From positions 1 to 13,436 of IMG/VR virus record IMGVR_UViG_2802429224_000007: 13,436 nucleotides of DNA; one strand, given 5' to 3'. The notes beneath the pieces are model-generated. The model was given only the letters and a program-made list of their open reading frames with translations. It made no database searches and was not told the DNA's origin. The DNA is from a virus (taxonomy: Duplodnaviria; Heunggongvirae; Uroviricota; Caudoviricetes). Position numbers and translations under genes: made by a program. Of the stretch, positions 1-13,436 are shown piece by piece (position 1 is the stretch's first letter; the number at the start of each line of letters is the position of its first letter).

Positions 1-192
<192 letters not shown>

Positions 193-205
193 ATGCCAAA
201 GCAGA

Positions 206-2278
<2,073 letters not shown>

Positions 2279-2287
2279 CTATAAATT

Positions 2288-2305
2288 GTCTGATCGGACT
2301 TGTTC
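2288..2305 (+). promoter_or_regulatory. FadR-like operator box in the fabB promoter (tctgatcggacttgttc)
   Basis: The sequence tctgatcggacttgttc resembles the FadR consensus (CTGGTCNGACCTGTT-like) and sits about 65-85 bp upstream of the fabB ATG, where FadR is known to activate fabB. Site recalled from memory, not computed. Confidence 0.55.
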
Positions 2306-2323
2306 GGCGTACAAGTGTACGCT
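2306..2323 (+). promoter_or_regulatory. FabR-like palindromic operator (ggcgtacaagtgtacgct) in the fabB promoter
   Basis: Near-perfect palindrome gcgtaca-ag-tgtacgc immediately downstream of the FadR-like box. This matches the known arrangement in which the FabR site abuts the FadR site in fabA and fabB promoters. Confidence 0.6.
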
Positions 2324-2370
2324 ATTGTGCATTCGAAACTTACTCTATGTGCGACTTACAGAGGTATTGA

Positions 2371-3591
2371 ATGAAACGTGCAGTGATTACTGGCCTGGGC
2401 ATTGTTTCCAGCATCGGTAATAACCAGCAGGAAGTCCTGGCATCTCTGCGTGAAGGACGTTCAGGGATCACTTTCTCTCAGGAGCTGAAGGATTCCGGCA
2501 TGCGTAGCCACGTCTGGGGCAACGTAAAACTGGATACCACTGGCCTCATTGACCGCAAAGTTGTGCGCTTTATGAGCGACGCATCCATCTATGCATTCCT
2601 TTCTATGGAGCAGGCAATCGCAGATGCTGGCCTCTCCCCGGAAGCTTACCAGAATAACCCGCGCGTTGGCCTGATTGCAGGTTCTGGCGGCGGTTCCCCG
2701 CGTTTCCAGGTGTTCGGTGCTGACGCAATGCGCGGCCCGCGTGGCCTGAAAGCGGTTGGCCCGTATGTGGTCACCAAAGCGATGGCATCTGGCGTTTCTG
2801 CCTGCCTCGCCACACCGTTTAAAATCCACGGTGTTAACTACTCCATCAGCTCCGCTTGTGCGACTTCCGCACACTGTATCGGTAACGCAGTCGAGCAGAT
2901 CCAACTGGGCAAACAAGACATCGTGTTTGCTGGTGGTGGCGAAGAGCTGTGCTGGGAAATGGCGTGCGAATTTGACGCGATGGGCGCGCTGTCTACCAAA
3001 TACAATGACACCCCGGAAAAAGCCTCCCGTACTTATGACGCTCACCGCGATGGTTTTGTTATCGCTGGCGGCGGCGGTATGGTGGTGGTTGAAGAGCTGG
3101 AACACGCGCTGGCTCGTGGTGCTCACATCTACGCTGAAATCGTTGGCTACGGCGCAACGTCTGATGGCGCAGACATGGTTGCTCCGTCTGGCGAGGGCGC
3201 GGTTCGCTGCATGAAGATGGCGATGCACGGCGTTGATACCCCAATCGACTACCTGAACTCTCACGGTACTTCGACTCCGGTTGGCGATGTGAAAGAGTTG
3301 GCAGCTATCCGGGAAGTGTTCGGTGATAATAGCCCGGCGATTTCTGCAACTAAAGCGATGACCGGTCACTCACTGGGCGCTGCAGGTGTGCAGGAAGCAA
3401 TCTACTCTCTGCTGATGCTGGAACACGGCTTTATCGCCCCAAGCATTAACATTGAAGAGCTGGACGAGCAGGCTGCGGGACTGAACATCGTAACCGAAAC
3501 GACCGATCGCGAGCTGACCACCGTTATGTCTAACAGCTTCGGCTTCGGCGGCACCAACGCCACGCTGGTAATGCGTAAGCTGAAAGATTAA
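2371..3591 (+). CDS. fabB: 3-oxoacyl-[acyl-carrier-protein] synthase I (beta-ketoacyl-ACP synthase I, KAS I)
   Basis: 406-aa ORF with hallmark KAS I motifs: active-site Cys in SSACATSAH, catalytic His in [11 protein letters not shown] and [12 protein letters not shown], and C-terminal [15 protein letters not shown] gagg 6 nt upstream of ATG 2371. Stop TAA 3589-3591. Confidence 0.97.
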
Positions 3592-3604
3592 TTCTGCGAC
3601 ATGT

Positions 3605-3685
3605 CGGAGTCGGTTGGAGCAGCTCGGATAAGACGCGTAAGCGTCGCATCCGACATTACGCGCCAGCTCCGCATTCGGCAGTAAC
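3605..3685. repeat. REP-like extragenic palindromic element downstream of fabB
   Basis: Imperfect palindromic sequence cggataagacgcgtaagcgtcgcatccgac flanked by partially complementary arms (ggagcagctcgg / cgccagctccg), typical of REP units. Confidence 0.5.
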
Positions 3686-3690
3686 GCAAA

Positions 3691-3715
3691 AGGGAGCCTG
3701 ATGGTTCCCTTTTTC
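3691..3715 (+). terminator. Rho-independent terminator downstream of fabB
   Basis: Hairpin agggagcc-tgat-ggttccct (8 bp, one G-U pair) followed by a T-tract (ttttt). Confidence 0.65.
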
Positions 3716-3874
3716 ACATCATTGACAATCGCTGTTTGTTCCAGGCAAACTTCTTGCTTTGTCGATATCCTGCTGAAAATACGTACGCGTTAAACCCTTC
3801 CAACGCACTGTAACCCTGAAAACCAGAGAGATAAGACGGGGAAATTCTTCGCCTTGCGCTGCATTCTGGAGTAA

Positions 3875-6048
<2,174 letters not shown>

Positions 6049-6187
6049 TACGTATCCTTATACCTGAAATCATCGCAAGTATGCCTGGCCGCGAGATTAT
6101 GGCACACTTGTCCGGTTAACTCTCGTTCTCATACAGGTAGCACAAACGTGAAAATCCTTGTTGATGAAAAAGATGATTGGTTAATTT

Positions 6188-6211
6188 ATTGATATAAAAG
6201 GATTTATATCA
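6188..6211. promoter_or_regulatory. Perfect 10-bp inverted repeat ttgatataaa-agga-tttatatcaa in the flk upstream region
   Basis: Exact palindrome with a 4-nt spacer, AT-rich, about 140 bp upstream of the flk start. Candidate operator or recombination site; function unknown. Confidence 0.3.
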
Positions 6212-6251
6212 ACGTATGTCCACGCAGTGACCACATTTTCGAGATATAGTT

Positions 6252-6285
6252 AAAGCCCGTAAAATATGCGGGCTTTATAATTCTT
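6252..6285 (+). terminator. Hairpin plus T-rich tail (aaagcccg-taaaatatg-cgggcttt, then ataattctt), terminator-like
   Basis: 8-bp stem with a 9-nt loop followed by a T-rich run. No plus-strand gene ends immediately upstream, so it may instead mark the core/island junction. Confidence 0.3.
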
Positions 6286-6327
6286 GCTTTGCCCTCTTTT
6301 CAAACCATAAAATTTGTGTGCCTTTTT

Positions 6328-6334
6328 GGGGGGG
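6328..6334. repeat. G7 homopolymeric tract in the putative promoter region of the 246-aa gene
   Basis: ttttt-ggggggg-ag lies 33-39 bp upstream of ATG 6367. Homopolymeric tracts of this length are uncommon in E. coli intergenic DNA. Confidence 0.9.
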
Positions 6335-6366
6335 AGTTTTATCTTTGATATTATGGAGAATTATTC

Positions 6367-7107
6367 ATGCTTCATTGGGTTTGTACAAAATGTCAGTCTA
6401 AAAATTCTACGAAGGAATCAGTGTGTCCTGCGTGTGGAACTTCTTTTTGGTCGACGCAGAAAAAAGAAAGGAGAGGGTGTTTATTGTTGGTTGTAATGCT
6501 CTTCGTTGTGTTTTGGGTTATTGGGCAATTATCCGGAAACGAATCCGATTCACAGGTAAATAATATTCCATCGAAAGATCATATTAGCGATGAACTTGCT
6601 TTATCTGGAGTAGACAAGGCGAAACCGTATTCTTTTGTGCGTTATGACGACATAAGTTATGCGGGACGAAAGAGATTTAAGGTTTTTATAGTGTCGCCTG
6701 AATCTCAAGATTTAGAATCAAGAGTTTCGACAGCAAGGGCTGCGGCTATTGAGTGGCAGAAAGAAAAGAGAGCTGACTTTGTGTCTGTGTTGCTTCTACC
6801 TACGGAAAATTCGGAAGGTAGTTATCTATTGACAATGGCTGATTATTCTCCTGATGGTTGCGGAACTGGTGCCGTATGTGACAATAAAAAATGGGCTATA
6901 TCATCTAGTGATGTAATATTAACAAAATCACAACTTCAATCCATATCTTTGTGGAATGAATATAAGAAAAAGTTTGCGGGTAATGATGGGGTTTTGGATT
7001 TAAAGGAAGAAAAGAAATTGAAGCAGTTTATTAGTAAGCAGCTAAATATTCCTGTTAAGGATGTATTTGCTCCAAGAGTCTTGCCTTTAAAGGAAATCGT
7101 AGATTAA
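6367..7107 (+). CDS. Hypothetical membrane protein with N-terminal zinc ribbon (CxxC-x13-CxxC), one transmembrane helix and a ~190-aa C-terminal (likely periplasmic) domain
   Basis: 246-aa ORF: CTKCQSKNSTKESVCPACG, then hydrophobic segment CLLLVVMLFVVFWVIGQL, then a K/E/S-rich domain. Markedly AT-rich compared with the flanking core genes, consistent with horizontal acquisition. SD ggag about 8 nt upstream of ATG. Confidence 0.6.
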   Translation: MLHWVCTKCQSKNSTKESVCPACGTSFWSTQKKERRGCLLLVVMLFVVFWVIGQLSGNESDSQVNNIPSKDHISDELALSGVDKAKPYSFVRYDDISYAGRKRFKVFIVSPESQDLESRVSTARAAAIEWQKEKRADFVSVLLLPTENSEGSYLLTMADYSPDGCGTGAVCDNKKWAISSSDVILTKSQLQSISLWNEYKKKFAGNDGVLDLKEEKKLKQFISKQLNIPVKDVFAPRVLPLKEIVD

Positions 7108-7272
7108 CAAGATAGATGGGGCCAAACTGGTATTATTGCAACCCTCACTTGTGAGGGTGCAAAAAACCGTAGTTTTTGCGCTGCGGGTTTCTGCTTTGGG
7201 ATGATAGGGTGCCTTATCGACCTTAACCCTGGCAACCGATTGACGGGGGATTGCTCCCCCGTCGCGGTTTCC

Positions 7273-7413
7273 TTACTGTTTACACTGTAAGAACGCCGCA
7301 AACTCCGCTCCCCAGAAGCTCATCCGTATTTCACACAGCGAGCCGTGCAGCATCCAGATGATGAGGATTGCCGTCACGCAGAACGTGATGACCGTAAGCG
7401 ATTTTTGCGACAT
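7273..7413 (-). CDS. hok: Hok/Gef-family type I toxin (small membrane-depolarising peptide), 46 aa
   Basis: Manual translation of the minus strand gives MSQKSLTVITFCVTAILIIWMLHGSLCEIRMSFWGAEFAAFLQCKQ. It has the family hallmarks: N-terminal transmembrane helix, SLCE(I/L) motif and C-terminal E(F/L)AAFL.CK (compare HokA ...SLCELHIKQESYELAAFLACKLKE). Strong SD aaggag 8 nt upstream of ATG 7413. Not in the ORF track because it is under 60 aa. Confidence 0.82.
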   Translation of the reverse strand: MSQKSLTVITFCVTAILIIWMLHGSLCEIRMSFWGAEFAAFLQCKQ

Positions 7414-7513
7414 AGCGCTTGCTCCTTTTTCGGGGAGGCGCTAACCTATCACTTGCTAAGGGTAGATGGTTAGGGCCTCGGTTAAACAAAAATGTTTTCC
7501 GGGGCCTTTCCAC
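7331..7513 (-). CDS. Mok-like overlapping reading frame (putative translational coupler for hok)
   Basis: 60-codon ORF in a different frame, starting about 100 nt upstream of hok (GTG 7513) and ending inside hok, as expected for mok in hok/sok loci. Basic, low-complexity product. Could also be a chance ORF. Confidence 0.3.
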   Translation of the reverse strand: MERPRKTFLFNRGPNHLPLASDRLAPPRKRSKRYVAKIAYGHHVLRDGNPHHLDAARLAV

Positions 7514-7599
7514 ATCCGGCCTTCAGGTATTCCCTCCAGCCATCAGCCGAAAGGCACCCGCGCGAATTCTAGCTTGGTTTTTTCCCTTGTTTCAATCCG

Positions 7600-7699
7600 T
7601 TGAGGCCTCTCAGCCTTCTGATATAAAATTCCCGACCGCAGACATTATTCAGTCACGCATTTGATACATGCTTCCGCCGGCGTTCGCGCCGGTTTTTTT
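7600..7699 (+). ncRNA. Candidate ~65-nt small RNA: sigma70-like promoter (TTGAGG -35 at 7600-7605; extended -10 TGaTATAAA at 7619-7627) plus strong intrinsic terminator
   Basis: Promoter-like elements with a 16-nt spacer. The terminator (feature below) is about 50-65 nt downstream of the predicted transcription start. No ORF between them. Located on the strand opposite to hok/mok, upstream of mok, so it could be a Sok-like antisense RNA if the hok leader extends this far. Confidence 0.4.
7676..7699 (+). terminator. Rho-independent terminator (GC-rich stem ccggcg-ttcg-cgccgg followed by T7)
   Basis: Perfect 6-bp GC stem with a 4-nt loop, immediately followed by ttttttt. Terminator-competent on the plus strand only. 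Confidence 0.75.
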
Positions 7700-8081
7700 C
7701 GTCCTGTTGCTGCGTAGATCGTCATGTGCGATCGAGGCGCGGTATTGATCCTTTTTTCAGTTTAATTCTGACTCTTGATTTTGCGCAGGCCGCGCTGCGT
7801 CTGGCTTCTTTGTTTGAGGGTTGTTTAACGCGATCCTTTTCGCGATCGTGTCTTGTCCCACGTAAAGTATGAAAACTCTTTTAATATCAGCCTGTTTTCT
7901 TTCTCCTGCCATTCATGAGATCGTAAAAATCCCTCTGAAAACTGCAAAAAATTTCAAAGCGTGAAATTTCAGATCTTCGCTTTTCCCTCAGTTGCTGCGC
8001 GGGCTGGCGGTCATTTTTGCACGGCAGAAAACTGAAAAACTGTTTCGACACAAAACCCGCGGGTTGGAGGGGGTAGCGCGG

Positions 8082-8124
8082 TTTACGTCACCTCACGCTT
8101 TACGTCACACCGTTTACGTGGTGT
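8082..8124. repeat. Three direct repeats of TTTACGTCAC / TTTACGTG (starts 8082, 8099, 8113), the last embedded in a palindrome cacacc-gtttacgt-ggtgtg
   Basis: Direct repeats spaced 17 and 14 bp apart inside an ORF-free region downstream of the phage-like operon. Resembles iteron or arm-type binding-site arrays. Confidence 0.45.
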
Positions 8125-8242
8125 GCGCATACAGCGCCGGAATGGCACGCAGAACGCATTAATCAGGTGGCAGATATGAAAACGCACGGCCTGAACCGTG
8201 CGTTGCGTGATGGGGCGTTTATGTGGATTTTATGCCCGGTGA

Positions 8243-9940
8243 TCAGGCGATAAGGTCGCCGTATTTTTCGCGCAGGCTCGTAGCCTGTTGGGCGTCTGCG
8301 GCAAGTTCGCTGCTGTTTGTTGGTGCGCCAGTGTTGCTGTGGGTGTGGTTTGCAGTGTGTGTGGCCAGCAACTGAACCAGATCCAGAATATCAATCAACA
8401 ACGTCAGCAGATTAAGTCCGGATTTTTCCCGTGAGCCACCGCGCCCAATAAATACAGTCGGGGCGGTAAATTCCAGGCCGCCGTCCGCCCGGCATGTTCT
8501 GCGGCCTCCCACGTTTTCGGTGAGGTTATGCTCGATAGTGGATGTCGCCCCTTTGAGTTTAGTCAGCAAATCCTGCGCTACCATCTGGATATGCTCACCG
8601 GCTGCGATCGCATAATGGCCAGTAGTAATGTGTTCTGTCTGACCTGTCATCAGCTTGCTGGTTCCCAGAACGCTGGTTATGTCGTTTGCCTGTACTGTTG
8701 TTGTTCTGGTTGTTGTTGTGCGTTCTTCCTGATCGCTGTTAATGGTTCGCCTGGCTGAATGCTCCCTGATTTGCTGGTCGGTTTCTCTGTGCCAGCTTCC
8801 GTCAGTCGTGACACGCTGAAACACTTCTGCGCGCTGTTGTTGCAATTGTTCGCCGGGTTTTACATCAGGCAGGTTATGACCAGCGGGTAAGATTTGCCTG
8901 ATAACAGGCTTATCCGGGCGTCCTTCAATGTTGGATATTTCCACGATGGTGCCTGCTGGCGGGTAGGCAAAACATCCCGCCTCACTGCCAGCCATGGGGA
9001 CGGGGAGTGGTACTGCCGGGTAAACAGGCGTATCGTTTTTATCGTTGCCGTTCTCATCAAGCAACTGCACATCGACGGCGTAGCGTGGGCGGAAGCTGTC
9101 GGCCACATCGCCCAGGGTGACGGATTCCGTTGGGGCAATGACGCGCGCCAGCCTGGTATGTAGAGTACCGCTGGCCAGTTCCGGGAACTGTGTTTCCATC
9201 TGTCTGCGCAATGGTGATTTGGAGACAGGGCTGCCCGTGACGGTAAGGCGCTCCCATGTCAGGGTCATTTTCTCGTTGTTGAGGGCTACGCGGGTAATGC
9301 GTCCGGCGGGAAGATTCACGCCCGGTCGCACAGTTTCCATAAACATGATGTCGATGCTGTTTCCGCCGCTTTGCCCGAGTGTGTACTGTTGCGGAATATC
9401 CGGCATTGTAATACTGGCAAATCGTGAATCAGCTGCGCTTCCCACAAATACAGAACCGTCCGGCATAGGGTGCCAGACGTAATCGCTGATACTGAATGCT
9501 CGCCCCAGTTGGCTGAGCAGTTGTGCTCCGCTGCCGCTGTGGGTGATGTAGGGAGTTGGTATACTGGCATAATCCGCATCCGGAGTGATAAAAACGATAC
9601 CGCTTTGTCGCCCCAGATTATCGAGTACCCCCCGCAACGTCGGGTGTTGCATGGAGCAAGGGAAATCAAAATCCAGCACAGCAGCCGCTTCACGAATAAA
9701 AAGGCGACGTGAGCCATTTTCAGCAGGTTGATCGCGCTCAATGTAGCCGGAGAAATAGCGCCATGCTTCACCGTCACGGCCGAGATCAATTTGTACCATT
9801 GCGCCGGCAAGGCTGTGTTCGGGTGACAGATTGTTAACAGAAATGAAGCCACGACCGGCAGCATTCAGGGTAAGAACAAGGCTTATATCGGCAATTTCCA
9901 CCCGTTCGCCATTAATCATGCAGCGTTGTATCAATTTCAT
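8243..9940 (-). CDS. Phage structural protein, putative baseplate hub / central spike or fiber-tip protein (C-terminal HxH metal-binding apex-like motif)
   Basis: 565-aa ORF and last gene of the operon. ATGA overlap with the upstream gene stop; SD gaggaagg upstream. C-terminus ...LLATHTANHTHSNTGAPTNSS resembles the HxH apex motifs of trimeric spikes and fibers (P2 gpV C-terminus HTHKHPGDSGGTTG; lambda Stf HxH repeats). N-terminal region loosely resembles gpD/gp27-like hub proteins. Recalled from memory, no search run. Confidence 0.4.
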   Translation of the reverse strand: MKLIQRCMINGERVEIADISLVLTLNAAGRGFISVNNLSPEHSLAGAMVQIDLGRDGEAWRYFSGYIERDQPAENGSRRLFIREAAAVLDFDFPCSMQHPTLRGVLDNLGRQSGIVFITPDADYASIPTPYITHSGSGAQLLSQLGRAFSISDYVWHPMPDGSVFVGSAADSRFASITMPDIPQQYTLGQSGGNSIDIMFMETVRPGVNLPAGRITRVALNNEKMTLTWERLTVTGSPVSKSPLRRQMETQFPELASGTLHTRLARVIAPTESVTLGDVADSFRPRYAVDVQLLDENGNDKNDTPVYPAVPLPVPMAGSEAGCFAYPPAGTIVEISNIEGRPDKPVIRQILPAGHNLPDVKPGEQLQQQRAEVFQRVTTDGSWHRETDQQIREHSARRTINSDQEERTTTTRTTTVQANDITSVLGTSKLMTGQTEHITTGHYAIAAGEHIQMVAQDLLTKLKGATSTIEHNLTENVGGRRTCRADGGLEFTAPTVFIGRGGSREKSGLNLLTLLIDILDLVQLLATHTANHTHSNTGAPTNSSELAADAQQATSLREKYGDLIA

Positions 9941-10512
9941 GTTTTCCCTTCCTCTTTCACGCTCCCGATGCCAACAGCATTCAGACCAGAGCCAACGGCA
10001 TCATTGATTTTTTTCCAGAACGAACTTTGCGTATTCATGCCTTTGTCTGGTACCTGTTCGCTGCCATTCTGGGTCTGCTGTCTGGCGATGGTTTTCTGCG
10101 AACCGCTGCGTGCGGATGCTTTCTCTGGCACGCTTAATTTTTCCCTGAGAGTAAAGGTGATCTGCCAGTGCATCTTTCCCTGTTGTTCCGTGGCATCAAT
10201 GCCACCAGAAAACACCCCCTGTCGCATATTGATTGCCTTCGCGGTAGCGTTAGCAATGCGATATGTTTTTTTGGCACCGTTGCTTTCTGTTGCCTCCGCA
10301 AGCTGAAAAATACGGGTCAGAATAGCTTCATCGTTAAAATCAATAACCCCCGACACGCGCAGCTCTTTAGCCTTGTTTCCCTGCTGGGCGCTCGTGGTGC
10401 TGGTTGACTGCCCGGACATATCTTTGTCCGGTAGTTGCATGGTGGCGCTGACGGTGATGTTGCGCAGCAGAATGGCTTCCCCGTCAAGCGCAAGGACAAT
10501 CATCTGGGTCAT
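9937..10512 (-). CDS. Hypothetical phage-associated protein (191 aa)
   Basis: Translationally coupled on both sides (29-nt overlap with the upstream gene, ATGA overlap with the downstream one). SD aaggga upstream of ATG 10512. No recognisable catalytic motif; Q/S/T-rich centre. Confidence 0.55.
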   Translation of the reverse strand: MTQMIVLALDGEAILLRNITVSATMQLPDKDMSGQSTSTTSAQQGNKAKELRVSGVIDFNDEAILTRIFQLAEATESNGAKKTYRIANATAKAINMRQGVFSGGIDATEQQGKMHWQITFTLREKLSVPEKASARSGSQKTIARQQTQNGSEQVPDKGMNTQSSFWKKINDAVGSGLNAVGIGSVKEEGKT

Positions 10513-11197
10513 GTAGTGCTTCCCTTAGTGATGAGAGATTATCGCCGACGAACAGCATCACAGCTGTAAAAACCCACTCGGGGTGTGGGATGTTTTTTTG
10601 TATCAGCACTGCAGCCTGGCTAAGGGCTCCCTTGTAGCAAAAGCGCCACACCGGGCAAAATTTTTGCCGGAGTGCGGCCTGCTGATCAGCGATTTCCTGT
10701 AAGGCTTTATCTCTCGCATTCATGAACTGATGCAGCGATGATGACAATGTTTCCGGTGATGTGGCGGCAGGAGTGGCTGCCTGTGCAATGGTTGCTGCCA
10801 GCGACATGCTGCGAGTGGTCTGTGTCGACAGCATTATCGGTTCCGGAAGTGATGTTGCCGGTCTGGCGGGGATTTGCATTCTGCTGATGGCCAGTGAAAG
10901 TTGACTGGAAATCATGCGGGACATTCGCCCCACCTCTGGCAATGGAAATGCGCCTGAAAATTGCCTGGCGAGTGATAAAAACTCGCCAGCAGAAGGAGCG
11001 CAAAACAACAGCGCCACAATGTCTTTTTCTGTGCTTTCTTTCAGGTAGGGTAAAAGTGCAGATACAGCATTTTCGGGGCTGAGATAACGCCCCGATGGTT
11101 TGATGTTTCCGGTATTTTCTGACCATGGATGAAGGCAAACCACAGAGCATTTAATGTTCATGGCTGACGGGCGCAGAATTGCCTTTTCCCATTTCAT
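10484..11197 (-). CDS. Hypothetical phage-associated protein (237 aa), S/T/A/P-rich low-complexity central region
   Basis: ATGA overlap with the upstream gene stop (11194-11197). Longest frame across the interval, but unusual composition and a nested alternative-frame ORF (10707..11150) make the coding call less secure. Composition is reminiscent of tape-measure or linker proteins. Confidence 0.45.
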   Translation of the reverse strand: MKWEKAILRPSAMNIKCSVVCLHPWSENTGNIKPSGRYLSPENAVSALLPYLKESTEKDIVALLFCAPSAGEFLSLARQFSGAFPLPEVGRMSRMISSQLSLAISRMQIPARPATSLPEPIMLSTQTTRSMSLAATIAQAATPAATSPETLSSSLHQFMNARDKALQEIADQQAALRQKFCPVWRFCYKGALSQAAVLIQKNIPHPEWVFTAVMLFVGDNLSSLREALHDPDDCPCA

Positions 11198-11766
11198 TCT
11201 GACTCTCCAGCCTGAAAAGCGCGGATGTCGGCAAGATTATTCAGGCTATCCAGCACATCCTTCATCTGTCGCTGACGTCGATAAATTTCATCGTTGCGGT
11301 TAACTTGCGCCCGTGCCATTGCTGTAGCCAGCTCTTCAAGCTCTGGCATCGACATCTTCACTTGTTGATTATCGGCGTCACCCCATGCCATAACGTCCCG
11401 TGCTGTGTCGGATTTCGCAGCCATTACTACCGGATAAAGGCGGGTCAGTGAGTCCGGGCCAGCGTTCCAGGTGCGTCCGTTCCATTCGAATGCGAACGGC
11501 TGCGCTTCCTGTTCTGTTCGCCAGGCTTCGATTTCCTGGCGTTTTGCGGCTTTTGCCGCTGCGATAAGTTCCGGCGTGACGGTGAACGGGGCGATTTCGC
11601 CCCATTTGCCGCTTTGCAGTTCCCGCCAGACTCGCTGGCCTGTTGTTGCTGTGTCTTCTGATGTGGCTGTGTAGGGAACAAATTCCCCCATTCCTTCAAA
11701 AAGCACTTCGCAGTCAATCGCTCCAGATTCCAGATAACGTGGATTCAGAATTTTTATAACTCGCAT
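11194..11766 (-). CDS. Putative tail fiber assembly / chaperone-like protein (190 aa, acidic, helical C-terminal half)
   Basis: TAATG overlap with the upstream 419-aa gene; SD gagga. Position directly after a fiber-like gene and the pattern ...FEWNGRTW...MSMPELEELATAMARAQ... resemble phage tail-assembly chaperone families (DUF4376-like). Assignment from memory only. Confidence 0.4.
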   Translation of the reverse strand: MRVIKILNPRYLESGAIDCEVLFEGMGEFVPYTATSEDTATTGQRVWRELQSGKWGEIAPFTVTPELIAAAKAAKRQEIEAWRTEQEAQPFAFEWNGRTWNAGPDSLTRLYPVVMAAKSDTARDVMAWGDADNQQVKMSMPELEELATAMARAQVNRNDEIYRRQRQMKDVLDSLNNLADIRAFQAGESE

Positions 11767-13025
11767 TACGCAATCCTCATAAACAGCCCTACAACAGCCC
11801 TTGTGTAGACATTGACCGAGTCGGTGCTGGATAAAGAAATGTAAGTGCCTGAAAGGTCGGCTCCACCTACAAGTGCAGTGGGGCCTGATTCAAATCCTGA
11901 AGAACGAAAATCCGCATAAAACGTCGCCTGTCGAAGCCTTGAGCCGGAATATGACCGTCCACGAATCAGCGTTTTTTTGCTTTCGCTGTCTGAATCTCCG
12001 GTATATGCGGCAAGAACAAGTCCTCCAATATCAGGGAGGTTGTGGTATGAGTCAGTCCATGAATACAATACTCGCGTAAAATCATCCACCTTAAGTAGTT
12101 TTTTTTCCCAACTGTCAGGCAGGGTTGCAGGGGTGATACCGCTGTGAATTCTTGCTGTATAACTCTCCCCATTTATTCCTTTAAAAATTACCTGCTTCGT
12201 TTCTTTTTGCTGATTCTCCGGGGTGGTATTTGTGCGAATTTCAATATCCAGATAGCCGGAAAAAACCAGCGTGCTGGGGCCAGTAATTATGGGGTTCTTT
12301 TTACTGCCACCGAACTGGCTGACAAGATAACGCCCGGGTGGTGTTTCACGTACCCACTGTAAAAATTCGGTCGGCCCCCTTTCGGCACTGAATTTAATTT
12401 CCTCTCCATATTTAAACAGTGCACCAAAGCCGAATGCACCTGGTATGGCAAGGCAACCTTCGGTGCGGTCGTAAATATCGCTCTGGGATTCCATTGTAGA
12501 CGCACTTTTTAGTCCCAGATTGTTTCGGGATTCCTGCTGCGCCTCTTCTCCCTCTGCTGCAATTTCTGACAATCGGTTAGGAGCTTTCAGCATTGATTTC
12601 AGCTCGGGGGTAATATCCACCTGCCAGCTCTGTGGAGGAACGGTAATCTGCGCAGCCTGAGCCACGCCCTGATAAGTAATCGTGAAATTCCTGACCAGTG
12701 ACTCGCCAGTATGTTTCTGGCGAACAGGGGTTTTTATTACGCCGCACAGTGTTCTGCTGGCCTGATGAATGAGGCAAATCCAGTCATAGCTGAATGCACA
12801 GTCATCAGGAACAACTGCGCTACACACAATATTGTTCGGGTTTAACTGGCCATAGGTCAGTTCATTCACAGCATATGTGATTTTTTCTTCCGGAACGGTA
12901 TTATCTTCGCGCGTTGGTTCCCGCTCCATCAGAGCAAAAATAATGGCGTCAGGACGTGCAGGTAAATTACTGGCTGTGCATTCGGCAACCCACTTTTCAA
13001 ATGCTTTCGTTAACAGTGCGCTCAT
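11766..13025 (-). CDS. Putative phage tail fiber protein (419 aa) with a divergent tail-collar/fiber N-terminal domain
   Basis: N-terminal ~120 aa follows the spacing pattern of P2 gpH / Mu gpS-type fiber N-domains (VVPDD..F.YDWICL...TL.GV compared with VIPADVGGF..RE.GL.D..G.LIAV), but the conserved GDG motif is absent. Followed by a chaperone-like gene. Low-confidence functional call. Confidence 0.4.
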   Translation of the reverse strand: MSALLTKAFEKWVAECTASNLPARPDAIIFALMEREPTREDNTVPEEKITYAVNELTYGQLNPNNIVCSAVVPDDCAFSYDWICLIHQASRTLCGVIKTPVRQKHTGESLVRNFTITYQGVAQAAQITVPPQSWQVDITPELKSMLKAPNRLSEIAAEGEEAQQESRNNLGLKSASTMESQSDIYDRTEGCLAIPGAFGFGALFKYGEEIKFSAERGPTEFLQWVRETPPGRYLVSQFGGSKKNPIITGPSTLVFSGYLDIEIRTNTTPENQQKETKQVIFKGINGESYTARIHSGITPATLPDSWEKKLLKVDDFTRVLYSWTDSYHNLPDIGGLVLAAYTGDSDSESKKTLIRGRSYSGSRLRQATFYADFRSSGFESGPTALVGGADLSGTYISLSSTDSVNVYTRAVVGLFMRIA

Positions 13026-13031
13026 TACTTC

Positions 13032-13436
13032 TTAATTCTCGCTAATGTTCTGCGGTAATTCTGGCCATACAATCGAGGCATACGATGCTTTATCTGTAAC
13101 CTGGCTGAATGTCATCTGCTGTAGTGCTTTCGCATAAATACGGCATGCTTTCAGTTTTTCCCTGTCTTCGTCGCTGATTAATCCCAGCAGCAGGTCTTTT
13201 TCCCATTCGCTGGTCATGATGCTGGCCTGTTTTAACAGTGCATCACGCTCATCTTCCGCTTTAAGTTTGTAGTCAAAAACAAATGCATCATTGCGGTAGA
13301 ACCAGTAACCCGACGCCTCAATGCGACGATTGGCGGTAATATCCGGTAGCTCAATCACGCTTTTATTTTCCGGGCAGATTGAGGTGATGTCTTTTCCAAC
13401 CCAGACCACTTCGCCAGTTTCAACATAAATAACTTT
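13032..13436 (-). CDS. Tail fiber assembly protein, P2 gpG / Tfa family (5'-truncated by the window end)
   Basis: The frame is open to the window edge; the ORF-track start at 13409 is a GTG and in-frame codons continue upstream (KVIYVETGEVVWVGKD...). Matches gpG-type Tfa as I recall it: VIELPDITANRR (compare VVEVPDITSNRR) and the C-terminal ...Y..L...D....I.WPELP motif. Confidence 0.7.
   Translation of the reverse strand, partial: KVIYVETGEVVWVGKDITSICPENKSVIELPDITANRRIEASGYWFYRNDAFVFDYKLKAEDERDALLKQASIMTSEWEKDLLLGLISDEDREKLKACRIYAKALQQMTFSQVTDKASYASIVWPELPQNISEN

Follow-up and report, generated by a model that had tools for sequence, protein, structure and literature searches.

Among the closest described relatives of the locus analysed here is the paradigm type I toxin-antitoxin system, hok/sok (parB) of plasmid R1. 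Translation of R1 hok needs the mok frame, whose start region reads GAGG, 8 nt and AUG. The R1 toxin has 52 residues and is preceded by a leader of ~173 nt, and its mRNA pairs the 5' end with a 3' fold-back element, can form an alternative 5' hairpin, and holds the hok ribosome-binding site in a hairpin. The antisense RNA consists of a single-stranded 5' tail and one hairpin. Other points of comparison are HokA of E. coli K-12 and hokW-sokW of Sakai prophage 5, a lambdoid Stx phage. More than 80% of Hok peptides conserve C16, T18, L30, C31, E32 and E41 in R1 numbering (Escalera-Maurer et al., bioRxiv 10.1101/2025.08.07.668861); that work covers coding sequences, and explicitly sets aside Mok, Sok and mRNA elements. 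Here we compare with these systems a 46-codon frame in a 13,436-nt stretch of viral DNA (Caudoviricetes; IMG/VR record IMGVR_UViG_2802429224_000007, positions 1 to 13,436; hereafter the window). An original prediction, made from the sequence by eye, had called this frame an unannotated Hok/Gef-family type I toxin gene at the edge of a mobile island. The assignment to a type I toxin gene of this family in a mobile island is borne out by both protein evidence (Pfam and phrog_251) and RNA evidence, and we conclude with high confidence that the frame is a genuine Hok/Gef-family membrane-toxin gene, part of a prophage-borne type I hok/sok cassette.

The hok open reading frame (7273-7413, minus strand) runs from an ATG through 46 codons to a stop, and its listed translation is MSQKSLTVITFCVTAILIIWMLHGSLCEIRMSFWGAEFAAFLQCKQ. 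Residues 6-22 give a Kyte-Doolittle mean that peaks at 2.58 over 17 residues, which fits a single transmembrane helix, and the SLCEI motif is present. Together with the AAGGAG ribosome-binding site 8 nt before the ATG, these features and the coordinates of the minus-strand frame are as originally predicted. The Pfam Hok/Gef profile search that had been proposed as a check of the 46-aa peptide scored 29.6 bits with HOK_GEF (PF01848; E 5.2e-7) against a curated gathering score of 22 bits, and aligned residues 8-44 with positions 6-42 of the 42-position profile. The match to phrog_251 was full-length (80.7 bits, E 1.2e-22; all 46 residues on positions 2-49 of a 50-position profile), and a Hok/Gef name or domain was found in all 67 of the 67 clusters homologous to the peptide. 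The 46-47-codon frame is intact in 14 homologues of 59-98% identity, with length differences that are multiples of three.

Within the family, the peptide belongs to a separate subfamily. Its best NCBIfam match, to the HokA equivalog NF007290, reached 35.2 bits against a cut-off of 89, and the generic Hok subfamily NF007279 gave 23.3 bits against a cut-off of 73; these scores place the peptide in a Hok subfamily of its own and led us to reject orthology with HokA. Identity with HokW was likewise rejected, HokW being a 51-aa peptide of a different Hok cluster. In BLASTP alignments, which bring the conserved residues into register, the window peptide, 46 residues long rather than the 52 of R1 Hok, is 37% identical to R1 Hok over 35 residues and 38% identical to a HokA-type sequence. 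Window residues C12, T14, L26, C27, E28 and E37 fall on R1 C16, T18, L30, C31, E32 and E41 (BLASTP register, offset 4), so that all six conserved residues are matched, and C44 aligns with the Y/C position 48 of R1 numbering. With HokA of E. coli K-12, which lies at a different genomic site, the peptide has in common an M-x-QK start, a WM..SLCE core and an AAFL.C tail. Both C27 and C44 are hard-coded, as in HokA and unlike HokB to HokE, and A-to-I editing by the tRNA-adenosine deaminase should therefore not be needed for the window Hok.

The surroundings of the frame have the layout of a hok transcription unit. A sigma-70-like promoter site (TTGAAA, 18 nt, TAGAAT; 10 of 12 consensus matches) lies at 7566-7595 on the minus strand, and its TAGAAT-type -10 is kept in most homologues; from its position, the hok mRNA would begin at ~7559. 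At gathering thresholds Rfam reported nothing at the hok locus. Searched permissively, the Rfam RF01794 'sok' model matched 7559-7400 (minus strand) over its full length (1-157; E 2.9e-8), starting exactly at 7559, with 43.3 bits, under the curated gathering score of 59. This match lies on the hok-sense strand, and the model thus recognises the hok leader. Other permissive Rfam matches (sR1, CRISPR-DR9, mir-1188 and CsrC) were dismissed as chance.

A terminator-like hairpin followed by a U-run (7159-7194, minus strand) was taken as the 3' end, which together with the promoter-derived 5' end gives a predicted full-length hok mRNA of ~400 nt (7160-7559, minus strand). Compared with the other homologues, the window and E. 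coli AJ1 lack 6 nt of this terminator and carry a C/A mismatch in it, and it folds at -11.7 kcal/mol vs -20.2 in relatives. A second conserved hairpin, CCCUCACAAGUGAGGG, follows the terminator at 7157-7142 on the same strand. In a single-sequence fold, a 425-nt transcript reached -178 kcal/mol (z -5.8) with its 5' and 3' ends paired: the first 15 nt of the transcript pair with GGUCGAUAAGGCACCC at 7222-7207 in a helix of 12-15 bp. The 5' partner, GGGUGCCUUUCGGCU (7545-7559, minus strand), corresponds to a tac-like element, and the 3' partner, in the 3' UTR (7207-7222, minus strand), to an fbi-like fold-back element. The tac-like element can pair either with the fold-back element, in a closed form, or with 7509-7501, in an alternative 5' hairpin, which on its own folds at -33.8 kcal/mol (z -4.6). 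Thirteen full-length hok mRNAs, from E. coli, E. albertii, Salmonella enterica, S. diarizonae, Klebsiella oxytoca and Citrobacter braakii, were aligned, and in their consensus structure 96% of cells are paired, vs 37-44% in slid controls, with double-sided changes in 13 pairs.

Both partners of the 5' end are conserved among these 13 homologues. Helix 1, which joins the 5' element to the fold-back element (columns 1-12 with 359-371), is 98% paired and contains three compensatory pairs, and the alternative 5' helix (columns 1-10 with 51-59) is 94% paired. Alignment column 10 covaries with both of its partners, changing from C to U together with columns 51 and 361. It is by coupled covariation of this kind that the hok mRNA family has been defined. 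Further downstream, a leader hairpin at 7471-7506 (minus strand; helices 4 and 5) is the complement of the stem of the Sok-like RNA described below, and by-eye comparison with an R1-type locus (L003) puts its GAGG (7479-7476) where R1 has the ribosome-binding site for mok. The hok ribosome-binding site AAGGAG (7422-7427, minus strand) is locked with CCUCC in a local hairpin of -13.0 kcal/mol (helix 7 of the consensus). The start-codon region (7413-7398) pairs with the coding segment for AEFAAF (7305-7290) in 13 of 13 homologues (columns 153-168 with 261-276; helix 8), and this pairing is probably why the AEFAAF segment is invariant at the nucleotide level. In the 3' UTR, upstream of the fold-back element, a GC-rich conserved hairpin, GACGGGGG...CCCCCGUC (7241-7264, minus strand; helix 15), shows compensatory changes in 5 of its 9 pairs. 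Comparative analysis thus establishes the structural elements of a hok mRNA, which agree with those of R1; the window leader, at 146 nt, is shorter than the R1 leader. The mRNA 5' end also begins GGGUGC... in hokW-sokW, as read from published primer sequences (PMC8621323). In one Salmonella copy (loci L012 and L013, upstream of 3001) the GGGUGCC 5' element and the TAGAAT promoter are gone, though both the hok frame and the fold-back element survive; this cassette may have been inactivated.

The original prediction had considered a Sok-like antisense regulator not obvious by eye. Nonetheless, a putative antisense promoter, which is conserved, and an RNA of Sok shape can be placed at 7419-7511 on the plus strand, so that a Sok-like antisense unit at the hok leader is predictable from sequence. 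The predicted promoter (7419-7447, plus strand) has a -35 hexamer TTGCTC (7419-7424), which overlaps the hok ribosome-binding site, a 17-nt spacer and a -10 hexamer TAACCT (7442-7447). Across 38 distinct leaders the -10 reads TAACCT in 37 and TATCCT in 1, the -35 reads TTGCTC in 34, TTTACT in 3 and TTGCCT in 1, and the spacing is always 17 nt. Position and spacing are as in R1: the R1-type locus L003, read by eye, has TTGCGC-17-TATCCT. By consensus the predicted promoter is weak, with 3 of 6 matches in the -10 TAACCT, and a generic promoter scan did not flag the site. The predicted RNA itself would be ~57 nt long (7455-7511, plus strand; ends estimated) and, like its R1 counterpart, would consist of a single-stranded 5' tail and one conserved hairpin (7473-7507), here followed by UUU. 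It folds at -24.9 kcal/mol (z -3.8), and its shape is common to 38 of 38 leader variants, while the single-stranded 5' tail is the most variable stretch of the entire locus. A C/A mismatch that never varies in the hairpin of the mRNA strand corresponds to a G-U pair in the antisense RNA.

A mok-like overlapping frame upstream of hok had also been predicted, and such a frame does exist in the window: 60 codons at 7331-7513 (minus strand), with a GTG start at mRNA position 47, a possible GAAGG ribosome-binding site 6 nt upstream and the phase relative to hok (hok-1) that mok has in R1. Its function is doubtful. The mok-like peptide gave no Pfam or PHROG match, and the frame is open in 20 of 37 distinct leaders (67 of 98 copies) but closed or start-less in 17, all distant clades included. 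Leaders that are one nucleotide longer use ATG45 and keep the same phase. In at least 10 leaders, including that of the window's closest E. coli orthologue, a TAA or TAG at position 101 or a TGA at 128 closes the frame, and every Salmonella, Klebsiella and Citrobacter copy keeps hok and the RNA switch and has no mok-like start codon. The codon at mRNA position 101 varies between copies (TTA, TAA, TAG, TTG, TCA, TTC), so this position looks unconstrained; given the 17 leaders in which the frame is closed or start-less, a mok role is unproven. Our own earlier view, based on 13 loci, that the frame was almost unique to the window was withdrawn when 80 added viral loci showed it open in the commonest E. 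coli variant.

The arrangement also differs from that of R1. Where R1 has GAGG, 8 nt and the mok AUG, in the window family AUC comes after the GAGG, and a stop soon closes the frame. The sole long overlapping frame starts ~50 nt further upstream and is not conserved throughout the family; where it is present, its start falls on the 3' edge of the Sok target rather than beneath the 5' end of Sok. In half of the leader variants, all distant clades among them, the hok frame is retained along with the 5'/3' switch and the Sok unit, yet no frame with a canonical start runs into the hok ribosome-binding site. We tentatively raise the possibility, which we think rather doubtful, that this Peduoviridae-borne Hok subfamily can do without the R1-type mok leader frame or has moved it elsewhere, and that Hok is controlled directly, without translational coupling. 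Direct control would then work through sequestration of the ribosome-binding site and the start codon, plus Sok-triggered decay. If true, a mok-free subfamily would qualify the textbook model of translational coupling drawn from R1, a point of modest interest.

In one further respect the original prediction does not hold as worded: the gene had been described as unannotated and of a kind often missed by annotation. The exact window peptide is named on at least 1000 contigs in a public protein collection, as "Hok/Gef family protein" and "protein HokA", and PGAP annotation, phage P88 records and a preprint catalogue all carry the peptide or near-identical variants. At the orthologous flk-proximal locus of E. 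coli, where the gene order is flk, the DUF4875 gene, hok and tail/baseplate genes, PGAP annotates the Hok/Gef family protein WP_000078916.1, which differs from the window peptide solely by V8A. The region is matched by 1679 of 5426 complete E. coli genomes, and 309 matches come from IMG/VR. The 141-nt gene is labelled "MokW-like host killing / hok/gef family protein" in temperate phages that have been isolated, among them P88 (Peduoviridae, Xuanwuvirus) and Chuche. P88 gp52 is a 46-aa peptide with 2 differences from that of the window, and the hok-mRNA region of ~410 nt is 90-95% identical; in P88, too, it lies downstream of a tail gene near the genome end, though with different neighbour genes, since in the window hok is separated from the att core by a DUF4875 gene. 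The window hok is, in short, an ordinary and already catalogued gene that annotation pipelines routinely call, and the practical value of this standard cassette, from a widespread catalogued subfamily, goes little past correct annotation.

The V8A variant also provides a link to toxicity data. It is peptide 72_1621 of Hok cluster 72, cloned as plasmid LRP137, and stands in Table S2 among the toxicity-tested representatives of abundant clusters (Escalera-Maurer et al., bioRxiv 10.1101/2025.08.07.668861). The preprint names three non-toxic sequences only, and 72_1621 is not among them, which suggests that the V8A variant was toxic; we found no discussion of "cluster 72" in its main text (bioRxiv 10.1101/2025.08.07.668861). 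By way of this variant, the window Hok would itself be expected to act as a toxin on the membrane when expressed. The label "MokW-like host killing" (PHROG phrog_251, RefSeq phage; locus L099, 1660-1800) sits on the Hok toxin frame itself; the label names Mok and the family is the Hok peptide, and the name of phrog_251 is thus misleading. An alignment-based scan of genome contigs for hok relatives returned 7 loci, 3 of them in non-enteric assemblies. These near-identical enterobacterial hok loci, in a Planococcaceae MAG, Vagococcus sp. and Xanthomonas pisi (L004, L006 and L008), are most likely contaminating contigs.

Unlike R1 hok/sok, which is carried by a plasmid, the window locus lies on a prophage. 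A 20-bp att-like core, TTTTCATCAACAAGGATTTT, is present at 6151-6170 (minus strand) as a single exact copy, with 0 expected by chance, and marks the prophage/chromosome junction beside flk, between flk and the DUF4875 gene. The same sequence is the direct repeat that bounds the orthologous 35-kb prophage of E. coli AJ1 (locus L018, 856-875 and 36417-36436), a complete P2-type prophage between pdxB and flk with its integrase at the far end. The core at 6151-6170 puts hok 1.1 kb inside the prophage, as its second-to-last gene, so that "island edge" was approximately right as a description, except that the att-like core is 1.1 kb from hok and the DUF4875 gene lies between them. This neighbour (6367-7107, plus strand) is convergent with hok and low in GC (38-41%), and its protein has a weak N-terminal zinc-ribbon match and PHROG matches to families of unknown function. 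PADLOC had no model match for either the Hok peptide or the DUF4875 neighbour, so that assignment to a recognised defence system is unsupported. The genes beyond hok encode baseplate and tail-fibre proteins (phrog_2258, HP1_ORF34, DUF4376, a tail-collar fibre and Caudo_TAP). The window Flk is identical to that of E. marmotae, and the core genes are ~90% identical to those of E. coli.

Salmonella P2 prophages carry this Hok type at their ends, behind gpD and Ogr and sometimes in three tandem copies. In one P2-like prophage (loci L016 and L017; 2005-2145, 2503-2643 and 3001-3141), three diverged copies, each with its own leader, stand at a spacing of ~498 bp after gpD and Ogr.

Taken together, these features make it very likely that a P2/HP1-like (Peduoviridae) prophage, at the pdxB-flk site of an Escherichia marmotae-like strain, carries this hok/sok cassette as a moron close to the right prophage end. 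For its transcription and processing, the toxicity of its exact peptide variant and its biological role, we infer a course of events largely from the R1 paradigm. The full-length mRNA, closed by pairing of 7559-7545 with 7222-7207, would be translationally silent. Slow 3' trimming would free the 5' end, which would then pair with 7509-7501 in the alternative hairpin and so open the leader both to translation and to the short, unstable Sok-like RNA (~7455-7511, plus strand). As long as Sok is made, the duplex would be destroyed and translation blocked. Once transcription of the cassette stops, be it by loss of the prophage, shut-off of the host by an infecting phage or induction of the prophage, Sok would decay first and Hok would permeabilise the membrane. 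The prophage would likely be the one to benefit, by being stabilised, by keeping out other phages, or by an aid to lysis of the kind described for hokW-sokW.

How firmly can an active toxin cassette be preferred to other explanations? Nothing but its short length would speak for a chance ORF with a coincidental likeness to the Hok motif; the Pfam match over a curated threshold, the full-length PHROG match, the retention of the frame in all homologues with in-frame indels only, and the conserved hok-mRNA architecture make this exceedingly improbable. The cassette might instead be a relic in decay that has fallen silent, as several hok loci on the E. coli K-12 chromosome have, with a peptide frame that survives but no longer any Hok expression or killing. 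In favour of decay are the weakened terminator of the window, with its 6-nt deletion and mismatch, and the stop codons that close the mok-like frame in many near-identical copies, and chromosomal hokA, hokB and hokC were earlier found unable to mediate post-segregational killing (summarised in the introduction of bioRxiv 10.1101/2025.08.07.668861). Yet the promoter, 5' element, fold-back, ribosome-binding site and frame, as well as the predicted antisense promoter and hairpin, are all intact in the window cassette, which contains no IS element or frameshift. Copies from Escherichia, Salmonella, Klebsiella and Citrobacter have moreover kept these elements through compensatory changes, isolated phages carry the same cassette, and the peptide type is probably toxic, to judge from the V8A variant (bioRxiv 10.1101/2025.08.07.668861). 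We consider a silent relic quite unlikely.

If the cassette is active, as we favour, its main role could still be in lysis and release of the prophage on induction rather than in addiction or abortive infection. For hokW-sokW of Sp5, the Sok RNA vanishes on induction, and without the locus phage release halves (PMC8621323). In favour of such a role, the window cassette is carried by a P2-type prophage that seems complete, and it is also present in phages of that family that have been isolated. HokW, however, is a 51-aa peptide of another subfamily in a lambdoid phage, and in the AJ1 orthologue hok is far from the lysis genes of the prophage; nor does any sequence feature separate a lysis role from one in stabilisation or exclusion. 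A main role in lysis is thus a possibility to keep in mind, though a fairly unlikely one, and for the active hok/sok cassette that we prefer, stabilisation and exclusion stand beside it as candidate roles.

Some further observations concern the flanks of the cassette and of the window. Between the baseplate gene and the hok promoter, ~640 bp (7600-8242) contain no convincing ORF, and a terminator-like hairpin lies within this stretch at 7676-7693 on the plus strand. The place just upstream of hok is taken by a regulator gene, of Ogr type or another, in phage Chuche and the Salmonella prophages. At the contig end, just outside mnmC, a REP-type element (63-141, plus strand) matches Rfam naRNA4 (RF02564) with 74.8 bits, above the gathering score of 59.5, and is the sole match in the window at Rfam gathering thresholds.
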